From the NCBI GenBank assembly GCA_003252515.1, contig QKDR01000029.1:1-60491 (forward strand): a DNA stretch of 60,491 nucleotides. Direction: 5' to 3'. This document shows, one piece after another, positions 28,598-49,717 of this stretch; the stretch's first letter is position 1, and each line of letters begins with the position of its first letter. The DNA is from Candidatus Delongbacteria bacterium (GTDB lineage: Bacteria; UBA4055). Both the position numbers and the translations under genes were made by a program. The notes beneath the pieces are model-generated. The model ran no database searches and was not told where the DNA came from. It saw only the letters and a list, made by a program, of their open reading frames with translations.

Positions 28598-28650
28598 CAT
28601 TATTTTCTCCTGCGTGATTAACATTCTGTTAGCATTGTTGCTATGTAGCG

Positions 28651-31700: not shown

Positions 31701-33185
31701 TGAAGTCTGGGATACTGCCACCATCATGCTGTCGTATTCCTCAGTAATGAACTCTCCGGTCGGTTCGGGTCTTCTTCTTCCCGATTCGTCCCTTACACCA
31801 AGCTTCATCACGGCAAACTTAACCGATTTTATTCTTCCGTTCTCACCGTTTATCTCTACAGGGTTGGTCAGGAATTTAAAATTTATGCCTTCTTCTTCAG
31901 CTGCGACTATCTCGTGCGGCTCGGCCGGCATTTCGCGTCTCGTTCTTCTGTAAACGAGCGTAACGTCGGCGCCGAGTCTTTTGGCGACCCTCGCGCAGTC
32001 TATCGCGGTGTTTCCGCCTCCGATCACAGCGACCTTTTTACCTATCTCGACTTTTTCCTCTCCAAGATTCACTTTCTTAAGAAAATCTATACCGCCGTAA
32101 ACACCGTCCAGCTCCTCTCCCTTTATCTTAAGCGAGAGACTGACCTGCGCGCCGACACCTATGAAGAACGCCTTATATCCTTTTTTCCTTAAGTCCTCGA
32201 AATCTTTCGCAGTCGCGATGTCCGCGCCGGTCTTAAGTTCGATGCCCTCTTTAAGTATCTGCTCTATCTCCCAGTCAAGTTCGTTCCTTGAAAGCCTGTA
32301 AGCAGGAATACATGAGCGCATCATTCCGCCCGGTTTTTTATCTTTTTCATATATAGTGACCTGATAGCCTTTCTGAGCAAGATAGTACGCACATGTAAGT
32401 CCTGCAGGTCCGGCACCTATGACCCCCACTTTTCCCTTATCCTTCGGTACAGGCACATTTTTCTTTTCGAATTCGTCCTGATGCTGATGAACGTAGTCGG
32501 CTATGAACCTCTTGATTGATCTGATCGCTATAGGCTCGTCATATTCCCCTCTGCGGCATTCGATCTCGCACGGATGATGACATACTCTTCCGCATACCGA
32601 CGGGAACGGGTTGTTCTGTCTGATAAGGTCGTACGCTTCTTTGTATTTGCCTTTCGCGGCAAGAGCGACGTACCCCTGAACATGTATTCCCGAAGGGCAG
32701 ACGATCTTACACGGAGCCGTCTCTTTTTTATCGATCACAAAAGCGTTCGGTGATGCCTGAGCGTAAGGTTTATATATAGCTGCTTTCTCCACAAGTCTCT
32801 CGTCGAACACAGATACTGTCGAGATGGGGCAGACGGAAGCACATTCGCCGCATCCGGTACATTTGTCAAGATCGACGAATCTCGGCTTCTTGAACAATTT
32901 TACTTTAAAATTACCTGCCTCACCATCAACAGACAAAAGTTCTGATCCGGTAAGCAGGTCTATATTCAAATGTCTCCCTGCTTCCACAAGCTTGGGAGAT
33001 ATTACACACATAGCGCAGTCGTTTGTCGGGAACGTCTTGTCCAGCTGAGCCATCGTACCGCCTATCGCGGGCGTCTCGTCCATCAGGTATACTTTAAATC
33101 CCGAACCTGCAAGGTCAAGAGACGACTGGATACCGGCGATTCCGGCTCCAACTACAAGTACTGATCCCACTTTATTTTTTTTCAT
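28728..33185 (-). CDS. hdrA: 1485-aa fusion: HdrA-like flavin module carrying a GltD/NfnB-like NAD(P)H module, followed by a complete HdrA module
   Basis: aa 1-150: VVGAGIAGIQSSLDLA...DKTFPTNDCAMCV (HdrA FAD domain). aa ~155-560: CPSGIHVQGYV...NPFPSVCGRVCHHPCEIECRRG, VIGAGPAGLTCAYYL, VAVIGGGNTAIDCAR and FAGGDAV (GltD-like small subunit). aa ~620-905: the rest of the HdrA module, with PYCSSVCCMYAMKEA. aa ~915-1485: RIGVFVCHCGINISS, IIGGGLSGM, PYCSRVCCTQSIKNA and two C-terminal CxxCxxCxxxCP motifs. Confidence 0.8.
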   Translation of the reverse strand: MKKNKVGSVLVVGAGIAGIQSSLDLAGSGFKVYLMDETPAIGGTMAQLDKTFPTNDCAMCVISPKLVEAGRHLNIDLLTGSELLSVDGEAGNFKVKLFKKPRFVDLDKCTGCGECASVCPISTVSVFDERLVEKAAIYKPYAQASPNAFVIDKKETAPCKIVCPSGIHVQGYVALAAKGKYKEAYDLIRQNNPFPSVCGRVCHHPCEIECRRGEYDEPIAIRSIKRFIADYVHQHQDEFEKKNVPVPKDKGKVGVIGAGPAGLTCAYYLAQKGYQVTIYEKDKKPGGMMRSCIPAYRLSRNELDWEIEQILKEGIELKTGADIATAKDFEDLRKKGYKAFFIGVGAQVSLSLKIKGEELDGVYGGIDFLKKVNLGEEKVEIGKKVAVIGGGNTAIDCARVAKRLGADVTLVYRRTRREMPAEPHEIVAAEEEGINFKFLTNPVEINGENGRIKSVKFAVMKLGVRDESGRRRPEPTGEFITEEYDSMMVAVSQTSDLKFLNGNNVEVTKWNTVKADELTFKSTGKDIFAGGDAVQGPASVVEAVGQAYEAAISIDRFLRKQDLTEGRTVRDDLIPAKEPDQFVMRKVRAKMGEQDPKERINNFDEHELGFSEEQVKKEASRCLECGICSECLQCVTVCEAGAVDHSMTGETIEISVGSIIVSTGAEKYDPTAMHEYGFGRYRNVLTSIQFERVLAASGPYEGHLQRPADGKVPRKIAWIQCVGSRTEESPMPYCSSVCCMYAMKEAIIAKEHVGTVEPTIFYMDIRAFGKDFDKYYDKAKATGVRFVRGRIGKIKEIAETGNLELYYVGDDGKNTIEEFDLVVLSIGLHPQKNTADLADKLKVRLNEYNFIDNFGIYPIQTSRPGVFVCGPAVSPKDIPETVMQASGAVAGAAEILSEVRGTEITEKVYPEEIDVTGKTPRIGVFVCHCGINISSVVDVKDVVAYAKTLPNVVYASDNLFTCSQDTQIQMRDIIKEYKLNRVVVSSCSPSTHEALFQETLKEAGLNPYLFDMANIRNQCSWVHKDNHADATEKAKGLTKIAVGKARLLEPLYTVALDVTQKALIIGGGLSGMIAALSIAEQGYEVALLEKSDRLGGNLNRLSENVEGKKIETYITEIRDSLDDNPNVHIYTEAKINEIGGYIGNYKTTFVNSENETIEYRHGVIVIATGAVESKPEEYLYGSDPGVMTQLEFEEDFEKEPKKYQKFKNVVMIQCVGSRDENRPYCSRVCCTQSIKNAIRLKELNPQVNIYILYRDIRTYGFNEKYYRQAREMGIVFVKYNPDNKPVVEIDSKSLVLKDKGMLVRVKDHILNEELVINPGLVILASAMVPREDAVTLSQMLKIPLNEDNFFMEAHVKLRPVDFSAEGIFLAGLAHSPKGIEETISQAKAAAERASMIISSDKYISEANIAKVDLDVCSGCGMCVSVCPYGAPELFWRNGKEFAHINTALCKGCGSCASVCPSGAMQQLGFKEEQTLAMLTEALEVW

Positions 33186-33233
33186 CCGTAAATACTCCTG
33201 ATTTACTGAATACTCTTCTTTCGGAAAATGGTA

Positions 33234-33260
33234 AATGAAGGAGCACGAAGCTCCTTCATT
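33234..33260 (-). terminator. rho-independent terminator after the tandem-rhodanese gene
   Basis: AATGAAGGAGC-acgaa-GCTCCTTCATT hairpin. Confidence 0.6.
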
Positions 33261-33266
33261 CTGAAT

Positions 33267-34127
33267 CTATTCGACCGGATTGTCTTTTGTAGCGTTCCAC
33301 TCGTAATAAGCCCCGTCATATACTCTGACTTTTTTGAAATCCATTACGGAAGTCAGTACCGCATAAACAATACCTGCTCTGACGCTTGAAGCGCAGTACA
33401 GGATGATCTCTTTGTCACCTGATATACCGGCAGTCTGCAAAAGTTTAGCTATATCGTCTTTTGATTTTACTGTACCGTCACTGTTTATTACGGTGTCAAA
33501 AACGAAATTCACCGCGCCCGGAATGTGTCCTTTTCTTGTGATATTCGCGTCATCTTTTTCTTTACCGTTGAATTCGTCGCTGCTTCTGACGTCAACCAGC
33601 ATCACACCGTCTTTTTTCATATTGCTTTTTACGTATTCCATTGAAGCGTATTTTGATCCGTCTACCGCAGGAGCGAAAGTAACAGGTTCTACTTTATTGA
33701 TCTTCGCTGACATCTTGCCTCTAGCTTTTGCCCAGCCGCCTGTAATATGACCGTTAAGAATATCTACATTCTTAGCTCCCATATATTCAAGTATCCAGTA
33801 AAGTCTTCCGGCGGCTTTATTCGAACCGGTATCATATACGATGATCTTTTTATCGGGCGTAATTCCTTTTTCGCCTAAATACTTTGCGATCTCTTCTGCC
33901 GGTTTAAGCATTACTTTTATACCTTCCGGATTATACAGCGCGTTAAGATCCACGTTGACAGCCCCGTCGATATGTTTCTTGGCATAATCTTCAGCAGGTC
34001 TTGTTGAAACTATTATCGCGTCACCCGATTTAAGCAGTTTCGCTGCTTCTTTGGCGTCTATAAACCCTCCGAACAGGAATTGTACTCCCGCGATTAAGGT
34101 AATAAACAGAACTAATGATCTTTTCAT
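33267..34127 (-). CDS. exported tandem-domain rhodanese (thiosulfate sulfurtransferase-like)
   Basis: Signal peptide present. Two rhodanese domains: the first is inactive-type (VYDTGSNKAAGR) and the second has the active-site loop YCASSVRAG. Confidence 0.8.
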   Translation of the reverse strand: MKRSLVLFITLIAGVQFLFGGFIDAKEAAKLLKSGDAIIVSTRPAEDYAKKHIDGAVNVDLNALYNPEGIKVMLKPAEEIAKYLGEKGITPDKKIIVYDTGSNKAAGRLYWILEYMGAKNVDILNGHITGGWAKARGKMSAKINKVEPVTFAPAVDGSKYASMEYVKSNMKKDGVMLVDVRSSDEFNGKEKDDANITRKGHIPGAVNFVFDTVINSDGTVKSKDDIAKLLQTAGISGDKEIILYCASSVRAGIVYAVLTSVMDFKKVRVYDGAYYEWNATKDNPVE

Positions 34128-34145
34128 AAGATTTCCTTGCGTTGT

Positions 34146-35237
34146 TTAGAATTTCACCTGCAGCTGTACAAGTATTTCATTGTTGTCAACATCCTGCCAT
34201 TCTTCATCGTTCATTATATAATTGAACTGAAGCCTTGTCCATTCATTGAAGAAATAATTAAATCCGAACGTCATAGTAGTTACAGCCTGATAATCCAGCG
34301 ACATATCTTCGGCTGAGGGATCATATTTATCAATATCTGAATTCGCATCGAAGTATTCGTACTTGAAAACAGGCTGCAGATCCCAAGGCGTCATATATAA
34401 TGCCTGTACGAAATAACCGTTCCTTTTAATTGTTCCCTGGTGAACCACCACGGGTGTACCGTCTCATCCTCCGCCTGTAGTATAGGAACCTTTATCTTCC
34501 GCCTGAATATATTCCGCCTGTACAAGTATATCGGAATATTTGAACTCGAATTCTCCGGCAACCCTGGTTCTCTCGTCTTCTTCGGGCGCTGTGATCACGT
34601 TATAATATTTTCCGAATCTGTAGCTTCCGCCTATGCTGACCATATCCATTGCGTTGTAAACAAGCCTTCCGGCAAACACTTTATTCGGGTTGTCATCTTT
34701 AACACCCACACCATTACCGTTAGTGAGTGACATCGCGTATTTGAATTTTGCGTAATCGTTAACGTCGTAATTACCCTGCAGAAGAACGCCAAGATCCCTA
34801 TCAGGATAGACTAATGTATTTACCACCTTCGATCTTTTTATTGTGTGCAGGCTCTGGCATGGTGTATTCAGTTCAAGACTGAACGGGGATTTGAACTGAC
34901 CCATCGACAGTTTTGCGTATGGTGCAAGACGGGAATAAGTGATAAATCCGTCAAGCAGGAACGGCTGCCCGGCTTCAGTCACGAAAGGGCTTAATTCAAC
35001 TATGATGTAATAGCTGAAATCATACGGAATGCTTCCCAGAAAACCTAATCTTGCTCTGTTGAACGTAAAGCCCATATAATCGTCTGCATCCTCATCGTCG
35101 GACTGCTTATATTCGAACTGAGACTGAATATAGCCGACAACGCTCACTCCTTCATCTGAAGAGGCTTCCATGCATTGTGCCAGCAGTCCTGCAGTCATTG
35201 AAACCATCAGCATGAAAAATAAAATTTTATTCTTCAT
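34146..35237 (-). CDS. phosphate-selective porin O/P-like outer-membrane porin interrupted by an in-frame TGA at 34464..34466 (pseudogene, sequencing error or read-through)
   Basis: ORFs 34464..35237 and 34146..34451 are in the same frame, separated by a single TGA (…YTTGGG*DGTPVVVHQ…). The N-terminal part shows FNRARLGFLG...LLDGFITY...GQFKSPFSLE...PDRDLG (Porin_O_P-like). The C-terminal fragment ends LQVKF, a typical OMP terminal Phe. Confidence 0.6.
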
Positions 35238-35262
35238 TTGATCTCCTTTAATTTAAAATTCA

Positions 35263-35289
35263 GAGCAGGAACTATATAAGCTCCTGCTC
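35263..35289 (-). terminator. strong hairpin (11-bp stem, 5-nt loop) between the rhodanese lipoprotein and porin genes; terminator or attenuator
   Basis: On the minus strand: GAGCAGGAGCT-TATAT-AGTTCCTGCTC, followed by TGAATTTTAAATT. Confidence 0.5.
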
Positions 35290-35298
35290 ATATTTTCG

Positions 35299-36330
35299 TT
35301 ACTTGGCAAGCGTACCTTCAAGAGGAAGATCCACTATTGCCGTCGCATCCCACTTGTGTCCGGTAAGATCGTCATAGATCATCGCGTTAGCACCGTTACC
35401 CAGTGACCATGCGTCATATCCAAGCGCGCCAAGATATGCCGTGATCATTGAAGATGTCTGTCCCGTCCAGCAGTAGGTAACTATCGGCAAGTCAGGATTG
35501 AGAAGGCTCAGATCGATAGGGTTGATCCTGTAAGCTCCGTCAATGTTTCCATAAGTAGTTACGTCAGTTGCAGCCCAGTAATTGTTAATGAAATAGTTCG
35601 TATTGTTGTCGAGAACATCAGTCGCTGTTTTCTTATGGAAATTCTGCGTGATCCAGTATGCTCTGTTAGCCACTATTTCAGCATCCGTGTTACCTTCAAG
35701 TGTAACTGCAGGTAATGCATAAGTTGTCACAGGTACTGTAGCGTTGCCCGGTGCGGCTACCCAGTTGGCATGGTTAAGCTGAGCTGTACCGGCAGACCAG
35801 TAATCGAATCTAAGTTCATTAGCATCTGTAAGAGTAGCAGGATCCGGTTCGCCGTTAGGATTAATATCTGTATGCCATCCTGACATTCCCCACATTATTG
35901 AGAAAGCGTCGGAATAACCTGATAATCTGAGCGCTACCACTGCGTGACATGCGGACTGACCGGTATAGCAGACCACCGCAATTGTTTTCCCTCCGCATGC
36001 TGAGGCGTCAGTAATTATAGTTGCGAGGCTGGAATTTACAGCTCCCGGTATATGTCCTTTTTCGAATAAGGCCGCGCTTCTTATGTCCATTATATAATAG
36101 TCATTTGAAGCATCTGCATCCGTCATTACATCATTGACCGCTGCTGCTGTTTTGATCCAGTTTGTCAGCATGTCGTCTATGCCCATACCTTTGTTATCAA
36201 GATAATTAACAAGGTCCTGAGTCGAGTTGATCGTTACTTCAACGCTGTCGTCATCGTCTGAGCAGCTGATGATGAACATACTTGAGAATAGTACCAGCAC
36301 AATAGCCAGTAATGTGAATCTTTTTTGCAT
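35299..36330 (-). CDS. rhodanese-domain lipoprotein (two rhodanese-like domains)
   Basis: Lipobox FIISCSDDDD. Active-site-like loops VVCYTGQSACH and VTYCWTGQTSS. Confidence 0.7.
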   Translation of the reverse strand: MQKRFTLLAIVLVLFSSMFIISCSDDDDSVEVTINSTQDLVNYLDNKGMGIDDMLTNWIKTAAAVNDVMTDADASNDYYIMDIRSAALFEKGHIPGAVNSSLATIITDASACGGKTIAVVCYTGQSACHAVVALRLSGYSDAFSIMWGMSGWHTDINPNGEPDPATLTDANELRFDYWSAGTAQLNHANWVAAPGNATVPVTTYALPAVTLEGNTDAEIVANRAYWITQNFHKKTATDVLDNNTNYFINNYWAATDVTTYGNIDGAYRINPIDLSLLNPDLPIVTYCWTGQTSSMITAYLGALGYDAWSLGNGANAMIYDDLTGHKWDATAIVDLPLEGTLAK

Positions 36331-36408
36331 TTTGTCCTCCCGGATTTTTTTTCTACCACCTTATTATTACGATCTTAATTTAAGTGAACTCACTTGTTTC
36401 TACCCGCC

Positions 36409-36960
36409 TCATCCGCCGTCGCTTGTTTCTTCTTCGACGACGTCGGGAAGGCTCGGATCAAGCCACTTGGCATATCCGCCTTTAAGGCTCATTACATTTC
36501 TGTAGCCCATTTTCATAAGAGTCTGGGCTGCCAGAGCAGATCTGCCTCCTGATTTACAGTAAACAACTATTTCCTCATCTGTTCCCGGCATTTCGACGAA
36601 CAGATCATTGTCCCAGTACTTTTTGTTCCCGATATTGAACTCAATCATACCTCTTGGAATGTTTACCGTAAACGCATCAGGGTAAGGATACTCTCCGCTT
36701 TCCTCATCTTCCTGATTGATGAACCCTTCTTCGTATTCGGAAGGTTCCCTTACATCGATTACGACTCTTACTTCTTTGTTGTCCAGTTTCGATTTAAAAT
36801 CATCGTAACTGATCTCCGTGATATCTTTCTTCGCTTCACTTACCATTGCTTTGGAATTATCGAAAATCCCGTTCTCGCTGAAACCCTTTCCGCATGATAC
36901 GAGCAGAAGAAGGACAACTGTCAGAGCTGAAAGATATAATATCCGTCTGTTCATCATCAT
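36409..36960 (-). CDS. single-domain rhodanese lipoprotein
   Basis: Lipobox LLLVSCGKG. Canonical active-site loop VVYCKSGGRSALAA. Confidence 0.8.
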   Translation of the reverse strand: MMMNRRILYLSALTVVLLLLVSCGKGFSENGIFDNSKAMVSEAKKDITEISYDDFKSKLDNKEVRVVIDVREPSEYEEGFINQEDEESGEYPYPDAFTVNIPRGMIEFNIGNKKYWDNDLFVEMPGTDEEIVVYCKSGGRSALAAQTLMKMGYRNVMSLKGGYAKWLDPSLPDVVEEETSDGG

Positions 36961-36966: not shown

Positions 36967-38181
36967 TTAAAATGCGGAAAATTTTCCGGTTTTTTCATTC
37001 CATTTTACAAATATGTACGCAAAAAGCAAAAGCACAAGGATCAGTATTACCGATCCGGTATAACCAAGATAATCCGGCAGGAATACTTTTGTCGCTTCGG
37101 GCAGAAAACTGTCGAAGAAAGGCACAACGAAGTTCCTGGCGATCGGAGCAAATACAACGAATCCGAGTGCGGACAGCCATAGTTTAACATGTCCTTCTCC
37201 GGCTCTCCATAATGTTCCGACAGCACAGCCGCCGGCTATCGTCATACCCAGACCAAAGATGAACCCTCCGATCAGAGCTTTCGCCCAGAAGCTCGCGTAT
37301 ACTGCTTTCATTTCTATAGCCCTTACTGAAGTCTCCGCGGCGTTCCCGACACCAAAATACTTGAGAACGGTATAGCCGGTCAGGATCACAAGTATACTGA
37401 TAATGACCGCAACAGGAGCGGTCGCTTCGCCCGTCATGAACGGCTCGCGGAAAGCTCTAACAATACAGAATCTGGATCTCTGAAGAATGAGTCCGAGAAG
37501 CAGTCCGATTATAATATGCCATCCGAGCACCTTCATTCCCGAAGAACCTTCATAGTTATAGTTTCCGGCGACATAAAGAACCGCGATTATCACAAGCCAG
37601 GCCAGCCATTTCTGCCAAGCTCCGTGTTTGCTGTTGCCCGCCAGAAAAGTGTATGATTTTCCCGTGCTCATAAAAGGAAGGACTTCCATTTCCCAGATTA
37701 TATACTTTAAGGCAATATAAGTACCGATCAGAAACCCTAATGCCAGAAACAGAGCTCCGCCAGACAGAGCAGGCAAAGCCGAGAAGAAACCGCCTGTAGT
37801 ACATCCTACTCCGACCATAGATCCTACAGCCATCAATGCGCCTCCGAGAAAACCTTTGAAAAGTTCACCCTTTGGAGCGATCTTGATCCCGAACTCACCC
37901 GAGAATAGAGATGCCGTCATTGATCCTACCACCACCATAATGTTCAAAATGGCGACAGTATGCATGCTTACAGGTGTCGATGTGCTCATACTTTCCCATC
38001 CGAAAGCTCCGAGGAAGTTCTGCCCGATGTTCAGATAGCCTCCACTTGCCCCCCAGGGATACTTCACAACGAACAGAAGGATGTTCAGAACAGCCAGAAG
38101 TACACCTCCGACCCACATCGGCCAGGATTTTGCGAACAGGCTGTCGTATAGTTCCCTGAGCGTTCCGCCTTTTTTAAACAC
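36967..38181 (-). CDS. YeeE/YedE-family sulfur-compound (thiosulfate-type) transporter
   Basis: 404-aa polytopic protein. It has the three Cys-containing half-helix motifs typical of YeeE: GVGCTTGGFF, SRFCIVRAF and AGGCAVGTLW. A TusA-like gene lies immediately downstream. Confidence 0.8.
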   Translation of the reverse strand: MFKKGGTLRELYDSLFAKSWPMWVGGVLLAVLNILLFVVKYPWGASGGYLNIGQNFLGAFGWESMSTSTPVSMHTVAILNIMVVVGSMTASLFSGEFGIKIAPKGELFKGFLGGALMAVGSMVGVGCTTGGFFSALPALSGGALFLALGFLIGTYIALKYIIWEMEVLPFMSTGKSYTFLAGNSKHGAWQKWLAWLVIIAVLYVAGNYNYEGSSGMKVLGWHIIIGLLLGLILQRSRFCIVRAFREPFMTGEATAPVAVIISILVILTGYTVLKYFGVGNAAETSVRAIEMKAVYASFWAKALIGGFIFGLGMTIAGGCAVGTLWRAGEGHVKLWLSALGFVVFAPIARNFVVPFFDSFLPEATKVFLPDYLGYTGSVILILVLLLFAYIFVKWNEKTGKFSAF

Positions 38182-38192: not shown

Positions 38193-38420
38193 TTATTTTT
38201 TCTTGATGTAGAACTTATTCTCGCCCTCACCTTCCTCTATGCTGAGAAATTCGTTCCCGGTTTTATTACACCATGCCGGTACGTCAGCTTTTGATCCCGG
38301 ATCCGTACCTATCAGTTCAAGCACCTGTCCGGGCTGAAGGTCCTTCATCGCCTTAGCAAGCTTGATTATAGGCATAGGGCATGATAATCCCCTGCAGTCC
38401 AATGTTTGATCAGCGTTCAT
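38193..38420 (-). CDS. tusA: TusA-family sulfur carrier protein
   Basis: 75 aa. LDCRGLSCPMPIIKLAK is the CPxP motif. Confidence 0.85.
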   Translation of the reverse strand: MNADQTLDCRGLSCPMPIIKLAKAMKDLQPGQVLELIGTDPGSKADVPAWCNKTGNEFLSIEEGEGENKFYIKKK

Positions 38421-38423: not shown

Positions 38424-38918
38424 TCACTCCTCTTTTTTATTGTTATTAGCCCATTTCCCGTCAAGAATATTTGAAAGAACATCTTTTATTTCTTTCTCTT
38501 CTTTAGAATCAGGATGCAGTTTGTCGTTAATGATCCTGCATCTCAGGCTCTGTAGTTGTTTATCAAGCTCTTTTGCTTTAACATATCTTTCTCTTTCAAC
38601 GAAACCTTCTTTCACAGCCATCTCTCTAAGAATATCCAGCACATCGGAAAATTTCACACCCTGAGGGCAGAGAGCGTAACAGGTATAGCATCTGGAACAC
38701 ATCCAGAGAATATCCGATGATAGAACTTCCTTTTTCATTCCCAGGATACACATTCTGATTATTCTTCTGGGATCGTACTCGTCGTGAACTTCCGCCACCG
38801 GACATGCCGCAGTGCATGTTCCGCATGTGAAACACCTCTGTATGTGCTCCGCTCCGGGATGTGAGGCTATCTCGTTCTTGAAGTTCGCATCCATTTCGCT
38901 TAAGACTATCTTGTTCAT
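38424..38918 (-). CDS. HdrC-like 2x[4Fe-4S] ferredoxin subunit
   Basis: CFTCGTCTAACP and CSRCYTCYALCP motifs with HdrC-like spacing. 164 aa. Confidence 0.65.
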   Translation of the reverse strand: MNKIVLSEMDANFKNEIASHPGAEHIQRCFTCGTCTAACPVAEVHDEYDPRRIIRMCILGMKKEVLSSDILWMCSRCYTCYALCPQGVKFSDVLDILREMAVKEGFVERERYVKAKELDKQLQSLRCRIINDKLHPDSKEEKEIKDVLSNILDGKWANNNKKEE

Positions 38919-38933
38919 CAGAATTCTCCTTTA

Positions 38934-39764
38934 CTAAAAAGCTTCGGGTATATTTTTAAGTTCTTCGAATGAAAATACCGGTCCGTCGATACAGACATAC
39001 TTCGAGCCTATACCGCATCTTCCGCATTTCCCTATTCCGCATTTCATCCTTCTTTCGAGCGAAGTGTATATTTTATCGTCCGCGAATCCGAGTTCCTTAA
39101 GAACGGGCAGCGTGAATTTTATCATGATCGGAGGACCGCAGACAACAGCCCACGAATTCGGATCGGGAGCCACTTCTTTTGTGATGGTCGGAACGAATCC
39201 GCAATGCTTAGTCCATCCTTCTACCGATTTGTCAATGGTCAGGTGCAGAAAAAGGTCATCTCTCTTATCCCATTCCTTAAGCTCGTCCTTGTAAATGAGC
39301 AGATCGGGGTTCCTTGCTCCATAGATCACTGTGATCATACCATAATCCGACCTGTGTTCGAGCATATAAACAAGCATCGATCTCAGGGTCGTGAAAGCAA
39401 AACCTCCGCCGATTATCACTACATCCGCGCCTTTGAATTTCTCGACCGGATACCAGTTCCCGAGAGGACCCCTGATACCTACGATATCTCCCGGCTGAAG
39501 ATAATGGATCTCCTTTGTTACGGATCCGGTCCTGTTGACCGTGAATTTAAGAATGTCTTTTTCTGTAGGAGAAGAAGCTATTCCGAATGGGGATTCTCCC
39601 TTTCCGAGCATCGAGAACTCGCAGAACTGACCCGGCATGTAACTGAATTCGTCCCTGTCTTTCTCGTTCACAAAAGAGAGGTCAAATGTTTTAAGGGTTT
39701 TGTCCGGATTCTCGGCAAGGATTTTCTCGACCTTCATCTGTATAGGTAAGTAACCGTTACACAT
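38934..39764 (-). CDS. FAD/NAD(P)-binding oxidoreductase subunit with C-terminal [2Fe-2S] (FlxA / AsrB / sulfhydrogenase-gamma-like)
   Basis: FNR-like fold motifs (MPGQFCEF, RTGSVT, VVIIGGGFAFT) and the C-terminal motif CGIGKCGRCGIGSKYVCIDGPV. The start is uncertain (39764 or 39737). Confidence 0.7.
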   Translation of the reverse strand: MCNGYLPIQMKVEKILAENPDKTLKTFDLSFVNEKDRDEFSYMPGQFCEFSMLGKGESPFGIASSPTEKDILKFTVNRTGSVTKEIHYLQPGDIVGIRGPLGNWYPVEKFKGADVVIIGGGFAFTTLRSMLVYMLEHRSDYGMITVIYGARNPDLLIYKDELKEWDKRDDLFLHLTIDKSVEGWTKHCGFVPTITKEVAPDPNSWAVVCGPPIMIKFTLPVLKELGFADDKIYTSLERRMKCGIGKCGRCGIGSKYVCIDGPVFSFEELKNIPEAF

Positions 39765-40812
39765 CGGCTTGGACCTTTTCTTTAATTTTATGATCTAAAA
39801 TACCTTTTATAACTTCTCTGATATCGAAATTTACGGGACAAACCACGATGCACCTGCCGCAGCCCGTACAAAGATGGCTTCCGTAATTCTCCATAAAATA
39901 ATTGAATTTATGCATCACTCTCTGTTTCACACGCTGAGTCGAATTTCCGCGTGGATTATGACCTGAAGCCTCCATAGTGAAGATCGGGAACATGCATGAA
40001 TCCCACAGCCTGACCCTTTTTCCCCTGCCGTTCTTACCTTCGTCAGATACGTCGAAGCAGTGACACGTCGGACATATAAAAGCACAGGCGCCGCAGTTGA
40101 CGCATTTAGCGGCCAGTTTCTGCCACACAGGTTCGTTCCAGACTGTTGAAAGCTTTTCGAACAGGTTTGATATGTCGGTTGGTTTGGACATCATTTCTTC
40201 AGCTTTCTTTTTGGCTGTTTCGGCAAGTTCTTCGTCCTTCTTCTCCGCTTCAATCGTTACCGACAGTTTTTCAAGTAATGCTTTACCTTTTTCAGAGACA
40301 CCTTTCAGGATCAGATCCCCGTCAGTCTCAACGACGAACACGTCCGAACCGGTCTCGTCAAAAGGACCGCCGCCGAACCAGTTGCAGAAACAGGTTGACA
40401 GTGGTGCAGTGCATGCGAAGTTGAAGATAACGGAGGTGTCGTACTTTTTCTTCCAGTACGGGTCTTTGTACATATCCTTGTCCGGAGCCTGATGTGCGTT
40501 ACCGAACACCTTATCCAGCATTCTGATGCTCTTCGTGTCGCAGTTCCTCACACCCCAGAGCAGATAAGGTTTCTCTTCGTTATCCGAAATCCGGACCCCG
40601 TTAGTGTCATACTCGAAAAGTACTTCCGATTGGGGAAAGAAAACGTCTTTAGGAGATCTTTCGGATTTTACGGTGCCGGTAGAAATTTCCGCCGGATCGG
40701 TGATCTTTTTAAATTTAGATCTGGACCCGTCTTTTACCGGAGCGAAAACGAGATAATCCTTTAAAAATTCTCCGATCAGTCCGTTTATTTTGTCTTTTTT
40801 TACTTTCAGCAT
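39757..40812 (-). CDS. Fe-S subunit (AsrA / sulfhydrogenase-beta / FlxB-like), 2x[4Fe-4S]
   Basis: CVNCGACAFICPTCHCFDV and CTGCGRCIVVCPVNFDI. I prefer the start at 40812 (MLKVKKDK), just after the upstream stop. The ORF track extends to 40851. Confidence 0.65.
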   Translation of the reverse strand: MLKVKKDKINGLIGEFLKDYLVFAPVKDGSRSKFKKITDPAEISTGTVKSERSPKDVFFPQSEVLFEYDTNGVRISDNEEKPYLLWGVRNCDTKSIRMLDKVFGNAHQAPDKDMYKDPYWKKKYDTSVIFNFACTAPLSTCFCNWFGGGPFDETGSDVFVVETDGDLILKGVSEKGKALLEKLSVTIEAEKKDEELAETAKKKAEEMMSKPTDISNLFEKLSTVWNEPVWQKLAAKCVNCGACAFICPTCHCFDVSDEGKNGRGKRVRLWDSCMFPIFTMEASGHNPRGNSTQRVKQRVMHKFNYFMENYGSHLCTGCGRCIVVCPVNFDIREVIKGILDHKIKEKVQADV

Positions 40813-40814: not shown

Positions 40815-41780
40815 TCAACTCATTATAAAATCTTGTTTTTCGTGCTCGCAAAAGGTCGCCATTGCAGGTTTCTCATTAATGTCGAGACCTGCAGTATATC
40901 CGAACCTTTCCCTGATCTCCTTCTCGACCTTCTTGTTCATGATCCTCAGGTCGATCTCCACTGGACAGGCAGTAACGCAGGACCCGCAGTCGACGCACCT
41001 CCCGGCTATATGTATATTTCTTATAAGGTGGAAAATTATCGAATCTGTCGTTTCAGGGGTCTTTCCTATCCACTGCGGATTGTTCTGATCCACAAAACAT
41101 TCGTTGCAGTAGCATGACGGGCAAACGTTCCTGCATGCGTAGCAGCGGATGCATTTTGAATATTCCTCAGTAATATATTCCCATCTTTCTTCGGCTGTTT
41201 TCTTTTCGAACTCGTTGACGCTGGAGAATTCTTCCGGTACGTCAACTTCTTTTCTCGGTTCGCCGATGAAAACGTCGTATTCCCTCGCGTCGGGATATCT
41301 GCAGTAGATACAGGAATCTGAAAGGACTTCTTTTTCCGGTACGGATTTCTCGAGATCCCTGCCTTTTATCGTAACTATATTTCCGGAGCTTTTCACGGAA
41401 AATATCTCTTTTCCTTCCGCTGCAGCCCTCAGCTTCTTTTTCTCATACATCCCTTCGCAGTGTACGCCGATTATAAATACGTTTTCTCTCTTGACCTGAT
41501 TCTCAACAGCATAAAGAACGACCGATCTGGCATCACAGCCCTTAACGATCACTCCGACCTTCGCATGATCCTTAGAAAGTTTCCTCTTGTCTTTCGTCAG
41601 ATATGAAGTAAGATTGTTCCTGCATGTATGGTCGAATATCAGTTCCCCGACATCTTCGGGATATTCCATGAACAGAGGCGTGGCGATACCGGGAAGAGTG
41701 CCTTTTTTCCAGCCGATCACGATATCCGCCTTCTTCTCTTCAAGTATCTTCTTAACCGTATCCTTAAGTTCCTGCAGCAT
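40815..41780 (-). CDS. Fe-S protein, member of a local three-member paralog family (FlxC/FrhB-like?)
   Basis: CIRCYACRNVCPSCYCNECF...IFHLIRNIHIAGRCVDCGSCVTACPVEIDL. N-terminal GCDARS motif. Its ATG shares one base with the mvhD stop (TAATG). Confidence 0.6.
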   Translation of the reverse strand: MLQELKDTVKKILEEKKADIVIGWKKGTLPGIATPLFMEYPEDVGELIFDHTCRNNLTSYLTKDKRKLSKDHAKVGVIVKGCDARSVVLYAVENQVKRENVFIIGVHCEGMYEKKKLRAAAEGKEIFSVKSSGNIVTIKGRDLEKSVPEKEVLSDSCIYCRYPDAREYDVFIGEPRKEVDVPEEFSSVNEFEKKTAEERWEYITEEYSKCIRCYACRNVCPSCYCNECFVDQNNPQWIGKTPETTDSIIFHLIRNIHIAGRCVDCGSCVTACPVEIDLRIMNKKVEKEIRERFGYTAGLDINEKPAMATFCEHEKQDFIMS

Positions 41781-42202
41781 TATTTAACTCCTTTTACAAG
41801 TCTTTTGGCCGGTCCGATCTTTTTTATATCTTCCGATATTTTTGCTATAATATTGGCGAATCTTTCGCCTTCTCCTGCGGAAATCCACGAGAACTGAACT
41901 CTCTCCGGTTCAACTCCGACATACTCTAAGAGAGGCTTGATCGCCGCGAATTTTCTTCTTGCTATGAAATTACCTGACAGGTAATGGCAGTCGCCCGGAT
42001 GTCAGCCGGATACGAAAAGCCCATCATAACCGCTCTGAAGCGTCTTTACTATAAAAAGCGGATCGACCCTTCCGGAACATGGTATTCGCACAACTCTTAC
42101 GTTCGGAGGGTACTGCATCCTGGATACACCTGCCAAGTCAGCTCCGGCATAAGAGCACCAGTTGCACAGTAAAGCCAGTATTTTCGGTTCCCAGTTACTC
42201 AT
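41780..42202 (-). CDS. mvhD: MvhD (methyl-viologen-reducing hydrogenase delta / FlxD-like) selenoprotein; UGA at 42004..42002 read as Sec
   Basis: The track ORF 42002..42202 ends ...LFVSG at a TGA. The same frame continues U-HPGDCHYLSGNF...SWISAGEGERF for 73 sense codons to TAA 41782..41780. The TGA sits at the Cys of the conserved G-C-H-x-G-D-C-H-Y motif. Confidence 0.85.
41969..41985 (-). promoter_or_regulatory. SECIS-like hairpin downstream of UGA (mvhD copy 1)
   Basis: In the mRNA: AUUACC-UGUCA-GGUAAU, starting 17 nt after the UGA. Confidence 0.5.
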
Positions 42203-42222: not shown

Positions 42223-45200
42223 TTACTCGTTCATTACATTAATTATATCAAGCGATTCGAATGCGCTGAACATCTGCTCGTTCGTGAATCCTCTCAGATC
42301 CAGCGCACCGCACCTGCATGATGCCACACATGCCCCGCAGCCCTTGCATAGAGCGTCGTTCACTTTTGCGACTTCTTTCTCCTTATTGATCTCGATCGCG
42401 TTGTACGCGCATATCTGTTCGCAGTAACCGCAGGCCGTACAACGGCTTTCGTTCACCTCGCAGATGGTTCCTTCCGCGAGAACGGCTTTTTTGTTCAAAA
42501 ACGTCATCGCCCTGCTCGCCGCCGCTTTGGCCTGAGTGATACTTTCGCTACAATCTTTCGGGCCGTGCGCCAGACCTGCAAGAAAAACGCCGTCCGTCGC
42601 GAAATCCACCGGTCTGAGTTTTGCGTGGGCTTCGAGGAACATACCGTCAGTGTTTAGCGATACTTTAAGCATCTTGGCCAGATCCAAATTCTCTTTCTTG
42701 GCATCAACGGCGGTCGAGAGAACAAGAAGGTCGGCTTTTATTTCAATGTTCCTGTTCACGATCGGGTCGAAGACCGTGACGTTGACCTGAGTATCCGGAT
42801 CCATATCGTTGACAAGAGCCACTTCCGGTTTGTTGTCCGGCGTGTAGTGAACGAACATCGCTCCCTTGCCTCTCAGTTCGGAATAATATTTTTCCCTGAA
42901 ACCGTACGTTCTCACATCCCTGTACACGATGTAGATGTTCGCGTTCGGAAGCATCTTCTTGAGCACACCGGCGTTCTTGACGGCTTTCGTACAGCAAATT
43001 CTGCTGCAGTACATTTTCCCTTCCTCTCTCGATCCTACGCACTGTATCATAACCACGTTCTGAGGTTTTCTACCGCCGGGGAATTTCTTATCCTTCATCA
43101 TCCTTTCAAGCTCGACCTGCGAAATGATCCTTGATGATTCCCCGTAAAGGTATTCTTTCGACTCATGCTCGTCAGCTCCGGTCGCGATGATCACTGCTCC
43201 GTGCTCAACTATAACAGGCTGATCGCTACCTTTTTTCAGAAGTGTGGACTTGAAATTACCGACGTAACCGTCGATCTTTTGTATTTCAGTGCTCATATGA
43301 ATATGAATAAGCCTGTTTTTCCTGAGTTTATCTATTGTATCAGCAAGAAGTTCCTGCGGGTCGTCCTCGAAATTGAAGAAAATATTCCTGAGATTTCCTC
43401 CGAGCTCGTTCTCTTTTTCCACCAGATAGACTTCGTGTCCCGCTTCGGCCAGCGAGATCGCTGCGGTCATTCCGGCAAGTCCTCCGCCGATGACCATTGC
43501 TCTCGGATCGATAGGTATAGGCAGCCTTTTCAAAGGTTTCAGCTCTCTTGCTTTCGCGATACCCATACTTATAAGATCTTTAGATTTAGCTGTAGCGAGT
43601 TCCGGTTCGTTCATATGCGCCCAGGAGCACTGGTCTCTGATGTTGGCCATTTCGAACAGATACGGATTAAGCCCGGCTTCTGAAATTGTTTCCCTGAACA
43701 GAGGTTCGTGAGTTCTGGGAGTACACGCTGCTACGACGATCCTGTTGAGATTATGTTCTTTTATCTTTTCCTTTATTGTGTTCATACAGTCCTGAGAACA
43801 TGCGTATATCAGGTTCCCCGAAAATTCTACGTTAGGCTGAGTTCCGGCATGTTCGGCGACCGCTTTCACATCCACGACCCCGGCGATATTTATACCGCAG
43901 TGGCATACGAAAGCGCCTATCCTGGGTCTGTCTCCGGAAACGTCCATTTCAGGCACAGCTCCTTTTTTGTCTGTCAGGTCCTGACGCTCAAGCCTCAAGA
44001 ACTTGAGAGTTTCGGCTACAGCGCCTGAAGAAGTTGTAACCGACTCGGGGATGTCTTTAGGAGCATTCATAGCTCCGCAGACGTAAATACCTTCACTGGT
44101 AGTGTTCAGAGGAGTATTAGCGTCCGATCTGCAAAACCCGAATTCGTTCAGGTTGAAGTTCAGTTTTTCAGCGAGTTCGGTTATGTTGTTCCTGGGCTGA
44201 AGTCCGATCGAAAGCACGACCATATCGAATTTCTTGTACTGTATTTCTCCGTTCTCGAACACGTATTTCAGAATCAGGTTGCCCTCGTCGTCCTGGGAAA
44301 TGTCCGAAACTTTGGATTTTATGTATTCGACACCATATTTGCTTTTTGATTTTTCATAATATTTATCGAAATCCTTACCGAACGCTCTTATATCCATATA
44401 GAATATCGACGGCTGAAGGTCTTTTATGTGCTCTTTTGCAATAATAGCTTCTTTGATGGCGAACATGCAGCATGCTGAGGAACAGTAATTATGATTTATA
44501 TTCTCGTCCCTGGACCCGACGCACTGAATGAAAGCGAGACTCTTCGGTTCCTTGTGGTCTCCCGGACGTATGACATGACCTCCAAGCGGACCGGAAGCAG
44601 ACAGCATCCTTTCGAACTCAAGTGAAGTGACCACGTTCGGATATCTCTTATATCCGAAATTGCCGAAATGGATCGGGTTGAACGTATCTATCCCGCTCGA
44701 CAGTATTACAGCTCCGACATTAATTTCGTACTGTTTGTCTTTATCATCAAAATCTATCGCGCCTGCCGGACAAACCTTTTCGCATATCCTGCAAACGCCC
44801 TTGTTAAGATAAAGACAGCTTCTTCTGTCGATAGTATATTCTGAAGGGATACTTTGAAGGAAATATCTTGATATCGCTCCTCTTTTCCTGAGCTTCATGT
44901 CGAACTCGTCGTCAATCTTGACCGGACATTTTTCTTCGCAGAGACCGCATGATACGCATTTTTCCTGATTGACATACTTGGCTTTTTCAGTAATTACAGC
45001 CTTGAAATTGCCGGGAACACCGCTTACGGAATCTACGATCGAAGTCGTGTATATTTTTATATTGGGATGTCTGACGCTCTCGCTCATTTTCGGCGCGAGG
45101 ATACACATTGAGCAGTCATTGGTCGGGAAAGTTTTGTCCAGCTGGGGCATTCTTCCACCAATCGAAGGTGATTCTTCGACCAGATGTACCTTAATGCCCA

Positions 45201-45279
45201 TTTCAGCAAGGTCAAGCGCCGCCTGTATGCCGGCTATCCCCGCTCCTACTACCATTACCGATCTGCTTTTCAAACTCAT
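42223..45279 (-). CDS. hdrA: double HdrA (two HdrA-type flavin modules fused, 1018 aa)
   Basis: Module 1: VVGAGIAGIQAALDLA...DKTFPTNDCSMCI and NYCSSACCMFAIKEA. Module 2 starts at RIGAFVCHCGINIAGV, with IGGGLAGM, MYCSRICCTKAVKNA and two C-terminal CxxCxxCxxxC motifs. Confidence 0.85.
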   Translation of the reverse strand: MSLKSRSVMVVGAGIAGIQAALDLAEMGIKVHLVEESPSIGGRMPQLDKTFPTNDCSMCILAPKMSESVRHPNIKIYTTSIVDSVSGVPGNFKAVITEKAKYVNQEKCVSCGLCEEKCPVKIDDEFDMKLRKRGAISRYFLQSIPSEYTIDRRSCLYLNKGVCRICEKVCPAGAIDFDDKDKQYEINVGAVILSSGIDTFNPIHFGNFGYKRYPNVVTSLEFERMLSASGPLGGHVIRPGDHKEPKSLAFIQCVGSRDENINHNYCSSACCMFAIKEAIIAKEHIKDLQPSIFYMDIRAFGKDFDKYYEKSKSKYGVEYIKSKVSDISQDDEGNLILKYVFENGEIQYKKFDMVVLSIGLQPRNNITELAEKLNFNLNEFGFCRSDANTPLNTTSEGIYVCGAMNAPKDIPESVTTSSGAVAETLKFLRLERQDLTDKKGAVPEMDVSGDRPRIGAFVCHCGINIAGVVDVKAVAEHAGTQPNVEFSGNLIYACSQDCMNTIKEKIKEHNLNRIVVAACTPRTHEPLFRETISEAGLNPYLFEMANIRDQCSWAHMNEPELATAKSKDLISMGIAKARELKPLKRLPIPIDPRAMVIGGGLAGMTAAISLAEAGHEVYLVEKENELGGNLRNIFFNFEDDPQELLADTIDKLRKNRLIHIHMSTEIQKIDGYVGNFKSTLLKKGSDQPVIVEHGAVIIATGADEHESKEYLYGESSRIISQVELERMMKDKKFPGGRKPQNVVMIQCVGSREEGKMYCSRICCTKAVKNAGVLKKMLPNANIYIVYRDVRTYGFREKYYSELRGKGAMFVHYTPDNKPEVALVNDMDPDTQVNVTVFDPIVNRNIEIKADLLVLSTAVDAKKENLDLAKMLKVSLNTDGMFLEAHAKLRPVDFATDGVFLAGLAHGPKDCSESITQAKAAASRAMTFLNKKAVLAEGTICEVNESRCTACGYCEQICAYNAIEINKEKEVAKVNDALCKGCGACVASCRCGALDLRGFTNEQMFSAFESLDIINVMNE

Positions 45280-45300: not shown

Positions 45301-45741
45301 CTAAATAAATATATTGTGTTTACTTTCATTCTCACCTTTTTCCAGGATATCTTTTGTGAACTCGTTGCCGACCTGAGCGAATTTCTGCCCTTCCGAAGCC
45401 GAGATCCATGACAACCTGAACCTTTCTTCGTCAAGTCCGAGACCTCCGAACAGGGCTTTTAGAATTTTGATCCTTCTTCTTGTATAGAAATTACCGACCT
45501 GGTAATGGCAGTCGCCGGGGTGTCATCCGCCCACAAGTATGCCGTCAGCCCCTCTCAGGTACGATTTGATAAGGAATACAGGATCGATCCTGCTGGAGCA
45601 CATTACCTTTATCGGCAGAATAGATGTCGGATAGGACATCCTGTTGATACCCGCCAGATCCGCTCCGGTATATGAACACCACTTGCATAAAAAACTTACG
45701 ATCTTTGGTGATTCAGCGCTTTTCATATCTTTATTTTCCAT
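45301..45741 (-). CDS. mvhD: MvhD-like selenoprotein; UGA at 45525..45523 read as Sec
   Basis: The track ORF 45523..45741 ends ...ILVGG at a TGA. The frame continues [13 protein letters not shown]...[11 protein letters not shown] for 73 codons to TAG 45303..45301. Confidence 0.85.
45490..45506 (-). promoter_or_regulatory. SECIS-like hairpin downstream of UGA (mvhD copy 2)
   Basis: In the mRNA: AUUACC-AGGUC-GGUAAU, starting 17 nt after the UGA. The loop contains GGUC. Confidence 0.55.
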
Positions 45742-45762
45742 GTTTTAAGCTCTCAACTTATC

Positions 45763-46854
45763 TTATTCACCGAGTTCAGGGAATTCCTGCTCTTTATATA
45801 TCATCACCGGTATCTTTTCTTCTACATTTCTACCCGGTACGAAACTGAATTCAGAGGCCACAATCTCACCGGCTCTGTTGAAGACCGTTCCTACAGGTAT
45901 CGAAGCGGGACATACATCTGAGCATTGTCCGCAGCCGACGCACGAAAAAGCCATATGGGACATTCTGCCGATGTGAAAGAATATCGTATCGGGCGGAAGC
46001 CTTACCGCGCCTTTCTGTTCAGCCTCTTTTTCGATTATCGTCCTGTTGTAGTCAAAATTCGCGGAAGAAAAATCGCATTGAGTACAATAACAAATGGGAC
46101 ATACAGAATTACAGCCTCTGCAGCCGATACATCTTCCGAATATCTCCACGAGCCCTTCAAGCCCTTTATCGCTTTTATCTACTGCCGCGTACTGCCGATG
46201 CTTTACTTCCTTTCTTTCAGAAACGATCCCTGACAGTACTGACGGATCGAATTTCCCGTTCTTAAGTTCTATTCCCGATCCTTCAATTATCTTTTTCGTT
46301 CTCTCGTTCCAGACATATATCTCGGTCGTTCCGCATTCCGATCCCAGAAAACTCACAAGAACATCCGCGTTCTCAGGATAAAAATGTTCGCATCTGAGAC
46401 AGTTGTCTCTTAAACCATCCGTATTTTTACATTCCGAAACTGAAGCGTAATATTTTTTTAACTCTTCGTCGGACATACCACCGGCAAGTTTCTGCATAGG
46501 GTAAACCCCTCCGCAAGTATAGCTGGCTGTTATAAAATTATCGATATCGCCCTGAACTCTCTTTACAAGTTCAATGAAGGCTCTTAATTCACAAGGTCTG
46601 ATTATAGCCAGAACAGGCTTATCCATCTTTGTGAATTTGGACAGTATCTTGCCCGCGTTCTGAGGCATTGCGGGATAGAAGGGTACGATATATTTCAGAA
46701 GTTCTGGATCCGTTATCAGTCCGTAATCGGCATTTGACGCGCCTCCGAATTTCTTTAAAGAGAACACTCCGCCGATCTTTCCGTTCTCGAGCAGATATGA
46801 AGCAAGTTCTCTTACTGCAGTATCACGGTCCTTGTTTATCACCGCTTTAAGCAT
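45763..46854 (-). CDS. Fe-S protein, local paralog family (FrhB/FlxC-like?)
   Basis: RPCELRAF motif. CIGCRGCNSVCPICYCTQCDF...IFFHIGRMSHMAFSCVGCGQCSDVCPASIPV. Confidence 0.6.
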   Translation of the reverse strand: MLKAVINKDRDTAVRELASYLLENGKIGGVFSLKKFGGASNADYGLITDPELLKYIVPFYPAMPQNAGKILSKFTKMDKPVLAIIRPCELRAFIELVKRVQGDIDNFITASYTCGGVYPMQKLAGGMSDEELKKYYASVSECKNTDGLRDNCLRCEHFYPENADVLVSFLGSECGTTEIYVWNERTKKIIEGSGIELKNGKFDPSVLSGIVSERKEVKHRQYAAVDKSDKGLEGLVEIFGRCIGCRGCNSVCPICYCTQCDFSSANFDYNRTIIEKEAEQKGAVRLPPDTIFFHIGRMSHMAFSCVGCGQCSDVCPASIPVGTVFNRAGEIVASEFSFVPGRNVEEKIPVMIYKEQEFPELGE

Positions 46855-48010: not shown

Positions 48011-48020
48011 ATAAATCCCT

Positions 48021-49706: not shown

Positions 49707-49717
49707 AAACTACCTTA

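Follow-up and report, generated by a model that had tools for sequence, protein, structure and literature searches.

A gene for an HdrC-like protein that lacks its usual HdrB partner and is followed after 3 nucleotides (nt) by a gene for the sulfur carrier TusA raises the question of whether the carrier has taken the place of the HdrB substrate site of heterodisulfide reductase (Hdr) or has come to lie there for another reason. The locus is found in contig QKDR01000029.1 of GenBank assembly GCA_003252515.1, from Candidatus Delongbacteria, a genome of 2.52 Mb that is 96% complete. The stretch analyzed, referred to here as the window, comprises positions 1 to 60,491 of this contig, and the three genes of interest, encoding FlxB-like, FlxA-like and HdrC-like (HdrC') proteins, occupy positions 38424-40812. 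A preliminary description of the locus had considered the junction between hdrC' and tusA to be the most specific evidence that a sulfur carrier replaces HdrB. The reading that we favor is that FlxB, FlxA and HdrC' probably form a fixed electron-transfer unit of an HdrB-free supercluster, and that the adjacent tusA comes from a linked cassette that was placed there once. The Flx content, the missing hdrB partner and the tie of sulfur-carrier genes to the cluster are retained from the preliminary description; the use of the junction as specific evidence is not.

All the window genes discussed here are on the minus strand, and gene orders are given in the direction of transcription. The module starts with an mvhD gene (41780-42202) encoding an FlxD-like [2Fe-2S] protein, which has an in-frame TGA for selenocysteine (Sec) at codon 67 in GUHPGDCHY (conserved motif GG(U/C)HPGDCHY; the codon at this position is Cys in other phyla). 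A 1-nt overlap leads to the gene for the FlxC-like Fe-S subunit of 321 amino acids (aa), which is FdhB/FrhB_C-like (40815-41780), and a 2-nt gap to that for the FlxB-like Fe-S subunit of 351 aa (39757-40812; Fer4_22, CPTCHCFD type, AsrA/HydB family). The latter overlaps by 8 nt the gene for the FlxA-like flavin adenine dinucleotide (FAD)/NAD(P)H/[2Fe-2S] subunit of 276 aa (38934-39764; AsrB/HydG family), and hdrC', encoding a 2x[4Fe-4S] protein of 164 aa (38424-38918), follows after 15 nt. The next gene is tusA type 1 (tusA1, 38193-38420; CPMP motif, PF01206 at E 6e-29), which encodes the partner of YeeE and has its own ribosome-binding site within hdrC'; 11 nt further on lies the gene for a YeeE/YedE-family membrane transporter of 404 aa (36967-38181; PF04143 at E 2.4e-45), the only copy in the genome. 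This is the order that had been described from mvhD(Sec) to yeeE, with junctions that span from the 8-nt overlap to the 15-nt gap. Both the order and the tight junctions are real, and the E-values together with the retention of the order in 80 loci of other genomes far exceed chance.

The module that ends in hdrC'

The 80 related loci were collected by scanning reference genomes with the HdrC-like family, which is abundant, and were annotated by tblastn with the window proteins; counts of downstream neighbors cover 73 of them, and the tree was built from FlxA and HdrC'. This comparison of synteny shows flxA-hdrC' to be a near-invariant pair, flxA being the upstream neighbor of hdrC' in all loci with a readable upstream gene except one (L087). 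The three genes at 38424-40812 encode the last three subunits of a module mvhD-flxC-flxB-flxA-hdrC', which in turn belongs to a supercluster of roughly 20 genes that has several HdrA units and lacks HdrB. The conserved block consists of hdrA561, FeS387, FeS363, mvhD, hdrA1018, mvhD, flxC, flxB, flxA and hdrC', and the order of the supercluster is mvhD, hdrA429/561, two Fe-S genes, mvhD, hdrA1018, mvhD, flxCBA, hdrC', an optional frhB and hdrL. The block is kept in Cloacimonadota (including metagenome-assembled genomes, MAGs, labelled Delongbacteria or Armatimonadota), Fermentibacterota, Neomarinimicrobiota, Krumholzibacteriota, KSB1, Eisenbacteria, Zixibacteria, WOR-3 and others.

The gene that follows hdrC' in the 73 loci is tusA in 27, an frhB-like gene of 374 aa in 33 and hdrL in 13. 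On the FlxA and HdrC' tree the state with tusA next arises by a single change: the 27 loci form one Cloacimonadota clade (support 88 in the Shimodaira-Hasegawa-like approximate likelihood ratio test, SH-aLRT), which is sister (99) to four Cloacimonadota loci that do not have the junction. The spacer between hdrC' and tusA varies within this clade from -4 to 379 nt, with the 3 nt of the window at the tight end, and HdrB is already missing in lineages where frhB or hdrL follows hdrC'. A tight gene junction in a single genome can reflect a recent rearrangement and not protein contact. The junction of hdrC' and tusA is a lineage-specific rearrangement and therefore does not constitute specific evidence for TusA replacing HdrB.

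HdrC' contains two CxxCxxCxxxCP motifs that are invariant in 15 aligned sequences. It matches TIGR03290 at E 2.2e-27 with 95.8 bits, a score that does not reach the equivalog cut-off of 160 and covers model positions 1-85 of 144, as well as the N-terminal part of QmoC at E 4e-21 and the HdrC chains in the PDB at E 1e-26, over their residues ~13-114. The AlphaFold2 model of the monomer (predicted local distance difference test score, pLDDT, 76.7) has 5odc_C as its best Foldseek match (probability 1.00, template modelling score, TM, 0.55), and HdrC chains are the only significant structural matches of the model, according to which HdrC' has the HdrC fold. The proteins of the family are soluble, measure 156-164 aa and have C-terminal helices of their own, with a nearly invariant Cys127 and an invariant His-Pro in the alignment.

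As the preliminary description had noted, the HdrC-like gene is without an hdrB partner. There is no CCG-domain gene in the window, where HdrC' therefore does not adjoin a CCG-domain HdrB as in HdrABC, and hdrB is absent from 78 of the 80 related loci, adjoining hdrC' only in the two most distant homologs, L088 (Chloroflexota) and L089 (Thermoplasmata). The suggested search of the whole genome for CCG-domain proteins returned two, a GlcF/GlpC-like protein on contig C126 and a true HdrB on contig C137. The hdrB gene (C137:22443-23345; 300 aa) comes third, after an hdrA of 794 aa whose product has a fused MvhD domain and an hdrC of 134 aa, and is followed by genes for fumarate-reductase-like Fe-S and flavoprotein subunits, succinyl-CoA synthetase and fumarase; Williams et al. 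2021 (PMC8542988) have reported this gene set from Cloacimonadota as the thiol:fumarate-reductase/Hdr cluster. An hdrB elsewhere in the genome, which the preliminary description had named, if clearly co-expressed, as a finding that would speak against its proposal, is thus present, but it comes with an hdrA and an hdrC of its own and leaves the orphan HdrC' unexplained.

The subunits that precede HdrC' were compared with profile models and solved structures. The 351-aa protein matches PF17179 (E 3e-33), the AsrA model TIGR02910 (E 3.8e-47, 161 bits, cut-off 323) and the HydB model (E 5e-45, 154 bits, cut-off 750), and its best match among solved structures is the beta subunit of Pyrococcus furiosus sulfhydrogenase I (9nez_B, E 1.7e-41). 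The 276-aa protein has the domains PF00175, PF10418 and PF00970 and matches AsrB (E 2.6e-52, 177.5 bits, cut-off 288.6), HydG (E 1.1e-52, 179 bits, cut-off 650) and a model named cytochrome-c3 hydrogenase gamma, while the best PDB match of the 321-aa protein is 7bkb_E, the FdhB of the Methanospirillum Fdh-Hdr complex (E 4e-32). The family assignments of the locus genes are solid at the superfamily level, and the curated equivalog cut-offs are not reached by the AsrA, AsrB, HydB, HydG and HdrC matches.

Two known systems were considered for the pair and rejected. Anaerobic sulfite reductase AsrABC would require the siroheme subunit AsrC (PF01077) and a sulfhydrogenase (HydABDG/ShyABCD) the large subunit of a [NiFe] hydrogenase; in a domain search of the genome neither a siroheme sulfite reductase (NIR_SIR, PF01077; DsrAB/AsrC) nor a [NiFe]-hydrogenase large subunit (PF00374) was found, and neither was DsrC. 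Because the scores are below the cut-offs and both catalytic partners are absent from the genome, the pair is neither AsrAB nor sulfhydrogenase beta-gamma; the likeness to these proteins that had been noted from the sequence holds in the sense that they are the closest sequence relatives.

By domain content and position, the 351-aa, 276-aa and 321-aa proteins and MvhD are the probable counterparts of FlxB, FlxA, FlxC and FlxD. All four are present by their domains, with the FlxD/MvhD gene adjoining hdrA, and the flxDCBA likeness proposed for the four genes upstream of hdrC' is borne out by domain content. Our literature search found no description of the structure behind PDB 9nez and no detailed descriptions of the Flx subunits.

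Position of the sulfur-import cassette

The window contains three tusA genes that belong to two orthogroups. Type 1 (CPMP...GTDPGSK), the gene at 38193, precedes yeeE wherever yeeE is present in a locus; its product is 61-76% identical to the TusA encoded before yeeE in Fermentibacterota and in locus L085 and 35-38% identical to the other two TusA proteins of the window. These are of type 2 (CPQP...ADCPSFP), whose genes come after dsrE, with copies at 51513 and 52644. The orthology is consistent with an alternative that the preliminary description had itself raised, namely that this TusA works with YeeE in uptake. The adjacent Sulf_transp (PF04143) and TusA-fold (PF01206) genes are kept as a pair, as in YeeE/YeeD (TsuA/TsuB); YeeE scores 81.5 and 63 against the TsuA models (curated cut-offs 400 and 645, respectively), and a profile search gave no TsuB/YeeD match for TusA1.

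The two genes open a cassette with the order tusA1, yeeE, rhodanese, rhodanese, porin, rhodanese. In the window its remaining part (33267-36960) holds three exported rhodaneses (36409-36960, 35299-36330 and 33267-34127) and an O/P-type porin (34146-35237), and the clade of the window has the cassette between hdrC' and (frhB-)hdrL. The sister Cloacimonadota clade, KSB1, Neomarinimicrobiota and Krumholzibacteriota have it at the cluster head, directly before mvhD-hdrA429-hdrA561, in an arrangement that reads (arsR/dsrE)-tusA1-yeeE-rhd183-rhd343-porin-rhd286-(dsrE)-tusA2. Locus L085 has the cassette after hdrL, and Fermentibacterota have a tusA1-yeeE-dsrE-tusA2 set a few kb downstream on the opposite strand. 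The head of the window cluster keeps tusA2'-arsR-dsrE-tusA2 (tusA type 2, 52644-52868; an ArsR/BigR-like regulator, 52259-52531; dsrE-like, 51766-52131; tusA type 2, 51513-51737), which is what remains of the KSB1, Neomarinimicrobiota and Krumholzibacteriota arrangement when the segment from tusA1 to rhd286 is excised. Because the tree requires a single change and the cassette is at the head elsewhere, the junction is explained by a one-time relocation within the cluster and not by a conserved pairing of HdrC' with TusA.

The pair tusA1-yeeE is found in every arrangement and phylum examined, with the exception of locus L022 from a Cloacimonadota MAG, where tusA1 (10762-10989) stands alone between hdrC' and frhB and no yeeE was found in the MAG. 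Exactly one yeeE ortholog is present in 32 of the 43 genomes with the cluster. In 20 genomes yeeE and hdrC' are on one contig, and in 19 of these the distance between them is about 1-19 kb, the exception being a Zixibacteria genome; of the 19 linked genomes, 7 have yeeE at the head and 7 others, to which the window is added, have it after hdrC', while it follows hdrL in 1 and lies downstream on the other strand in 3. The claim that sulfur-carrier genes are tied to this cluster is sustained by this linkage in cis. The genome of the window has its three tusA genes, its single yeeE and its best dsrE all within that stretch. The mere presence of TusA does not discriminate, as it occurs in all 24 genomes without the junction and in most genomes in general.

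Some further differences among the loci concern the genes around the cassette. The frhB-like gene of 374 aa, usually located between the cassette (or hdrC') and hdrL (15916-17040 in L008), is absent from the window at 33185-33267 and from the whole genome, and in L090 it is shifted to the cluster head along with the cassette. The downstream part of L022 has a NuoE/F-type variant in place of the single hdrL. In L008/L009, from another Cloacimonadota genome, a DsrE-family gene of 119 aa (6289-6648) lies between hdrA1018 and mvhD2, one more entry point of a sulfur-carrier gene.

Candidate redox partners of the complex

Within the module, FlxA is predicted from its sequence to be the NAD(P)H/FAD/[2Fe-2S] entry subunit, with FlxB and FlxC as putative poly-ferredoxin subunits of the HydB/AsrA and FdhB types. 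HdrC' would act as an electron wire, by analogy with the HdrC that wires HdrA to HdrB (Wagner et al. 2017, as summarised in PMC5861303) and with the HdrC-like domain of QmoC, which has no HdrB, and would connect the flavins of HdrA and Flx either with the FrhB/HdrL module encoded downstream or with some other acceptor site. Sulfane sulfur would be imported via the porin, the periplasmic rhodaneses and YeeE and borne as persulfide on TusA1, DsrE and TusA2, where it would be the physiological redox partner of the complex, most likely the electron acceptor; NAD(P)H and/or ferredoxin would reduce it to H2S, which would provide an electron sink for fermentation. Gene content and linkage suggest that sulfur could well be the redox partner, a proposal we make tentatively, and reduction to sulfide would be likelier than oxidation because the HdrB pairs, an in-cluster LbpA and all sulfite-handling enzymes are missing. 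A more far-reaching version, possible but rather doubtful, is that the supercluster encodes an undescribed HdrB-free, multi-HdrA bifurcating or confurcating megacomplex in which the high-potential partner would be TusA/DsrE-bound sulfane sulfur, delivered through the cell envelope by YeeE, periplasmic rhodaneses and a porin bearing a reactive Cys or Sec.

Several observations weigh against our reading. No catalytic site for persulfide reduction was recognized in the cluster, and HdrB, to our knowledge the only disulfide-reducing subunit of Hdr enzymes, is absent here. The couple of sulfane sulfur and H2S is near NAD(P)H in potential and is a poor high-potential acceptor for flavin-based bifurcation. 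A strong terminator-like hairpin (51475-51500, minus strand; 11-bp stem with 7 G-C pairs and a T-rich tail) between tusA2 and the third mvhD parts the dsrE-tusA2 pair of the head from mvhD-hdrA and, judged by its sequence, could be a terminator or attenuator that separates the sulfur-carrier head genes from the hdr genes. In 11 of the 43 core-cluster genomes there is no yeeE ortholog, and at least four of these (G005, G006, G013 and G017) are also without tusA near the cluster, so the core complex can exist without an adjacent sulfur relay, although incomplete MAGs may explain some of the cases without yeeE. The tusA1 without yeeE in L022 is the one observation that speaks against the relocation.

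The same L022 locus, keeping tusA1 between hdrC' and frhB, can be cited for the proposal with which this analysis began, in which sulfane-loaded TusA docks on HdrC' in place of the HdrB substrate site and HdrC' reduces or oxidizes the TusA-bound sulfur directly. The 3-nt gap of the window with the tusA ribosome-binding site inside hdrC', the cluster without hdrB and the C-terminal helix of HdrC' with its nearly invariant extra Cys127 all fit such docking, but the junction occurs in one clade only and with spacers of up to 379 nt, the same HdrC' family precedes frhB or hdrL elsewhere with Cys127 included, TusA1 otherwise accompanies yeeE and not hdrC', and no persulfide chemistry is known for a plain ferredoxin-like protein of the 2x[4Fe-4S] kind. 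We consider docking of TusA on HdrC' as a substitute for HdrB improbable, and give the direct reaction between them no better prospect. An Hdr/Flx system independent of sulfur, for example a ferredoxin-linked NADH/NADPH transhydrogenase or a confurcating enzyme acting through the nucleotide sites of FlxA and the GltD type, would leave the cassette to assimilation and Fe-S cluster supply, with TusA1 in a TsuB/YeeD-like role. The cluster indeed contains two separate modules for NAD(P)H but lacks a subunit that reduces thiols, roughly one genome in four has the core without yeeE, and the genome of the window has no sulfite reductase and hence must assimilate reduced sulfur; in addition, the tusA1-yeeE pair is kept like TsuA/TsuB of Escherichia coli, where TsuB is essential for uptake (PMC11582611). 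We nevertheless find this option unlikely, since the cassette returns to the same supercluster at four positions in at least five phyla, which is unexpected for unrelated functions, and a cassette that also has DsrE, another type of TusA, three exported rhodaneses and a porin of its own exceeds the usual needs of assimilation.

Williams et al. 2021 (PMC8542988) noted that in Ca. Stygibacter and Ca. Tenebribacter a sulfur transporter, TusA and a thiosulfate sulfurtransferase are encoded in a cluster with Hdr genes, and proposed oxidation for these close relatives: imported thiosulfate or sulfane sulfur would be oxidized by an Hdr-type complex that supplies reductant to the reverse tricarboxylic acid cycle. 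The sHdr systems of sulfur oxidizers likewise come with TusA, DsrE and rhodaneses (PMC11094781), but the defining HdrB1/B2 are missing from the cluster, the only GcvH/LbpA-like gene of the genome is on another contig (C153), there is no DsrAB or DsrC in the genome, and the HdrA units occur together with modules of the MvhD and Flx kinds, a combination known from reductive or bifurcating Hdr enzymes; oxidation has in our judgment little likelihood for this locus. The least probable proposal, to which we attach hardly any weight, is that a YedE/YedF-like pair and the rhodaneses import selenium to supply the Sec-MvhD proteins and perhaps the porin. The best NCBIfam match of the transporter is YedE/FdhT, end to end (111 bits, cut-off 350), and the cassette in the 20-kb locus tracks Sec-MvhD (18 loci with Sec and cassette, 32 with Cys and without it, mixed cases 5 and 5), a correlation that is confounded by phylogeny and cassette position and that collapses once head-located cassettes are counted, as KSB1, Neomarinimicrobiota, Krumholzibacteriota and Fermentibacterota, which have Cys-MvhD, carry the cassette as well. 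TusA1 moreover scores higher against TusA than against YedF, and the DsrE and BigR-like parts indicate sulfur.

The system was also compared with those already known. One close relative is the FlxABCD-HdrABC system of Desulfovibrio vulgaris, reportedly described by Ramos et al. 2015 (as cited in PMC5947623), with which it shares one operon containing an NAD(P)H/FAD/[2Fe-2S] subunit, two poly-ferredoxin subunits, MvhD-like, HdrA and HdrC-type proteins. The window differs in its order hdrA-flxD-C-B-A-hdrC' without HdrB, in its three HdrA units, three Sec-type MvhD and HdrL, and in the absence from its genome of DsrC, the proposed Flx-Hdr substrate, so that a complete HdrABC with DsrC is not found. 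QmoABC also combines HdrA-type flavoproteins with an HdrC-like di-cluster domain without HdrB, the HdrC-like part being a pure electron wire, but QmoC has a fused membrane cytochrome b domain and serves adenosine 5'-phosphosulfate (APS) reductase, whereas HdrC' is soluble and has C-terminal helices of its own. HydBG of P. furiosus sulfhydrogenase I (PDB 9nez) and AsrAB remain the nearest sequence relatives of the 351-aa and 276-aa proteins, with all scores below the equivalog cut-offs.

The sHdr-LbpA system (PMC11094781) resembles the locus in having an Hdr-type cluster with TusA, DsrE-family and rhodanese genes, a YeeE-type importer and an ArsR-type regulator, here the BigR-like one at the cluster head. 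It needs two HdrB/HdrC pairs and LbpA; the window cluster is without these, and without any CCG-domain gene or the hdrC1B1-A-hyp-C2B2 set with lbpA, the only GcvH-family gene being that on C153, and has Flx, MvhD and HdrL instead. The TsuA/TsuB (YeeE/YeeD) pair is similar in that TusA-like and YeeE-family genes are adjacent and kept together (as summarised in PMC11582611); the pair of the window is embedded with a porin and three exported rhodaneses in an Hdr/Flx cluster, and its 404-aa transporter is more YedE-like in architecture. Judged by its gene content, the window system does not conform to HdrABC, AsrABC, sulfhydrogenase or sHdr and would be best filed as an Flx/Hdr variant with a putative acceptor. 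The account of Williams et al. 2021 (PMC8542988) does not cover the lack of HdrB, the module of Flx type, the distribution over several phyla or the mobility of the cassette.

Complexes of the Hdr/Flx type have a central role in the way anaerobes conserve energy, and their bacterial substrate is mostly without assignment beyond the DsrC hypothesis. An HdrB-less Hdr/Flx cluster linked to a set of sulfur-import and sulfur-carrier genes across candidate phyla, in organisms without DsrC and sulfite reductase, makes the TusA/DsrE persulfide a candidate redox partner and suggests a route by which fermenters abundant in sulfidic habitats (Cloacimonadota, Marinimicrobia, Fermentibacterota) could enter sulfur cycling. 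If the megacomplex should prove true, it would be a new type of cytoplasmic sulfur reductase that ties fermentation to the sulfur cycle and is widespread in the Fibrobacteres-Chlorobi-Bacteroidetes (FCB) group and allied uncultured anaerobes.

Other features of the window and its relatives

The supercluster extends upstream of the module into a double HdrA of 1018 aa (42223-45279; HdrA2 model 1009 bits) and a region (45301-51437) with mvhD(Sec), a split HdrA (429 and 561 aa), two FdhB-like Fe-S proteins (387 and 363 aa) and a further mvhD(Sec). Its final conserved gene encodes an HdrL-type fusion of HdrA and GltD of 1485 aa (28728-33185). A promoter scan of the window gave 34 matches, with 33.4 in shuffled sequence and hence no excess, and only two strong minus-strand hairpins stand out in the scan, at 51475-51500 and 35263-35289. 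At the cluster head (51513-52868) the two tusA type 2 copies, which are 89% identical, lie on either side of the BigR-like ArsR regulator and the dsrE-like gene; other phyla have one copy only at this place.

The porin gene has one reading frame with a single in-frame TGA (34464-34466) in the context GSYTTGGG[TGA]DG. The TGA is in the same column in eight related Cloacimonadota-type loci, where the homologs of the sister clade, KSB1, Neomarinimicrobiota, Krumholzibacteriota and Zixibacteria carry a Cys codon (TGT or TGC) within GSYTTGGGC. This pattern in the sequences suggests that the porin is a selenoprotein of the outer membrane whose Cys or Sec is reactive. Starting 11 nt past the TGA there is a small hairpin, which is statistically not distinctive.

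After hdrL the window has three tandem thioredoxin genes and an OsmC-family gene (26720-28660, minus strand), instead of which the Marinimicrobia locus L004 has LarA and PEPCK. Unlinked to the Hdr cluster, contig C7 of the same genome (3894-6581) encodes a formate-dehydrogenase-like molybdopterin protein with an in-frame TGA, probably for Sec, beside a NuoE/F-like protein of 574 aa.

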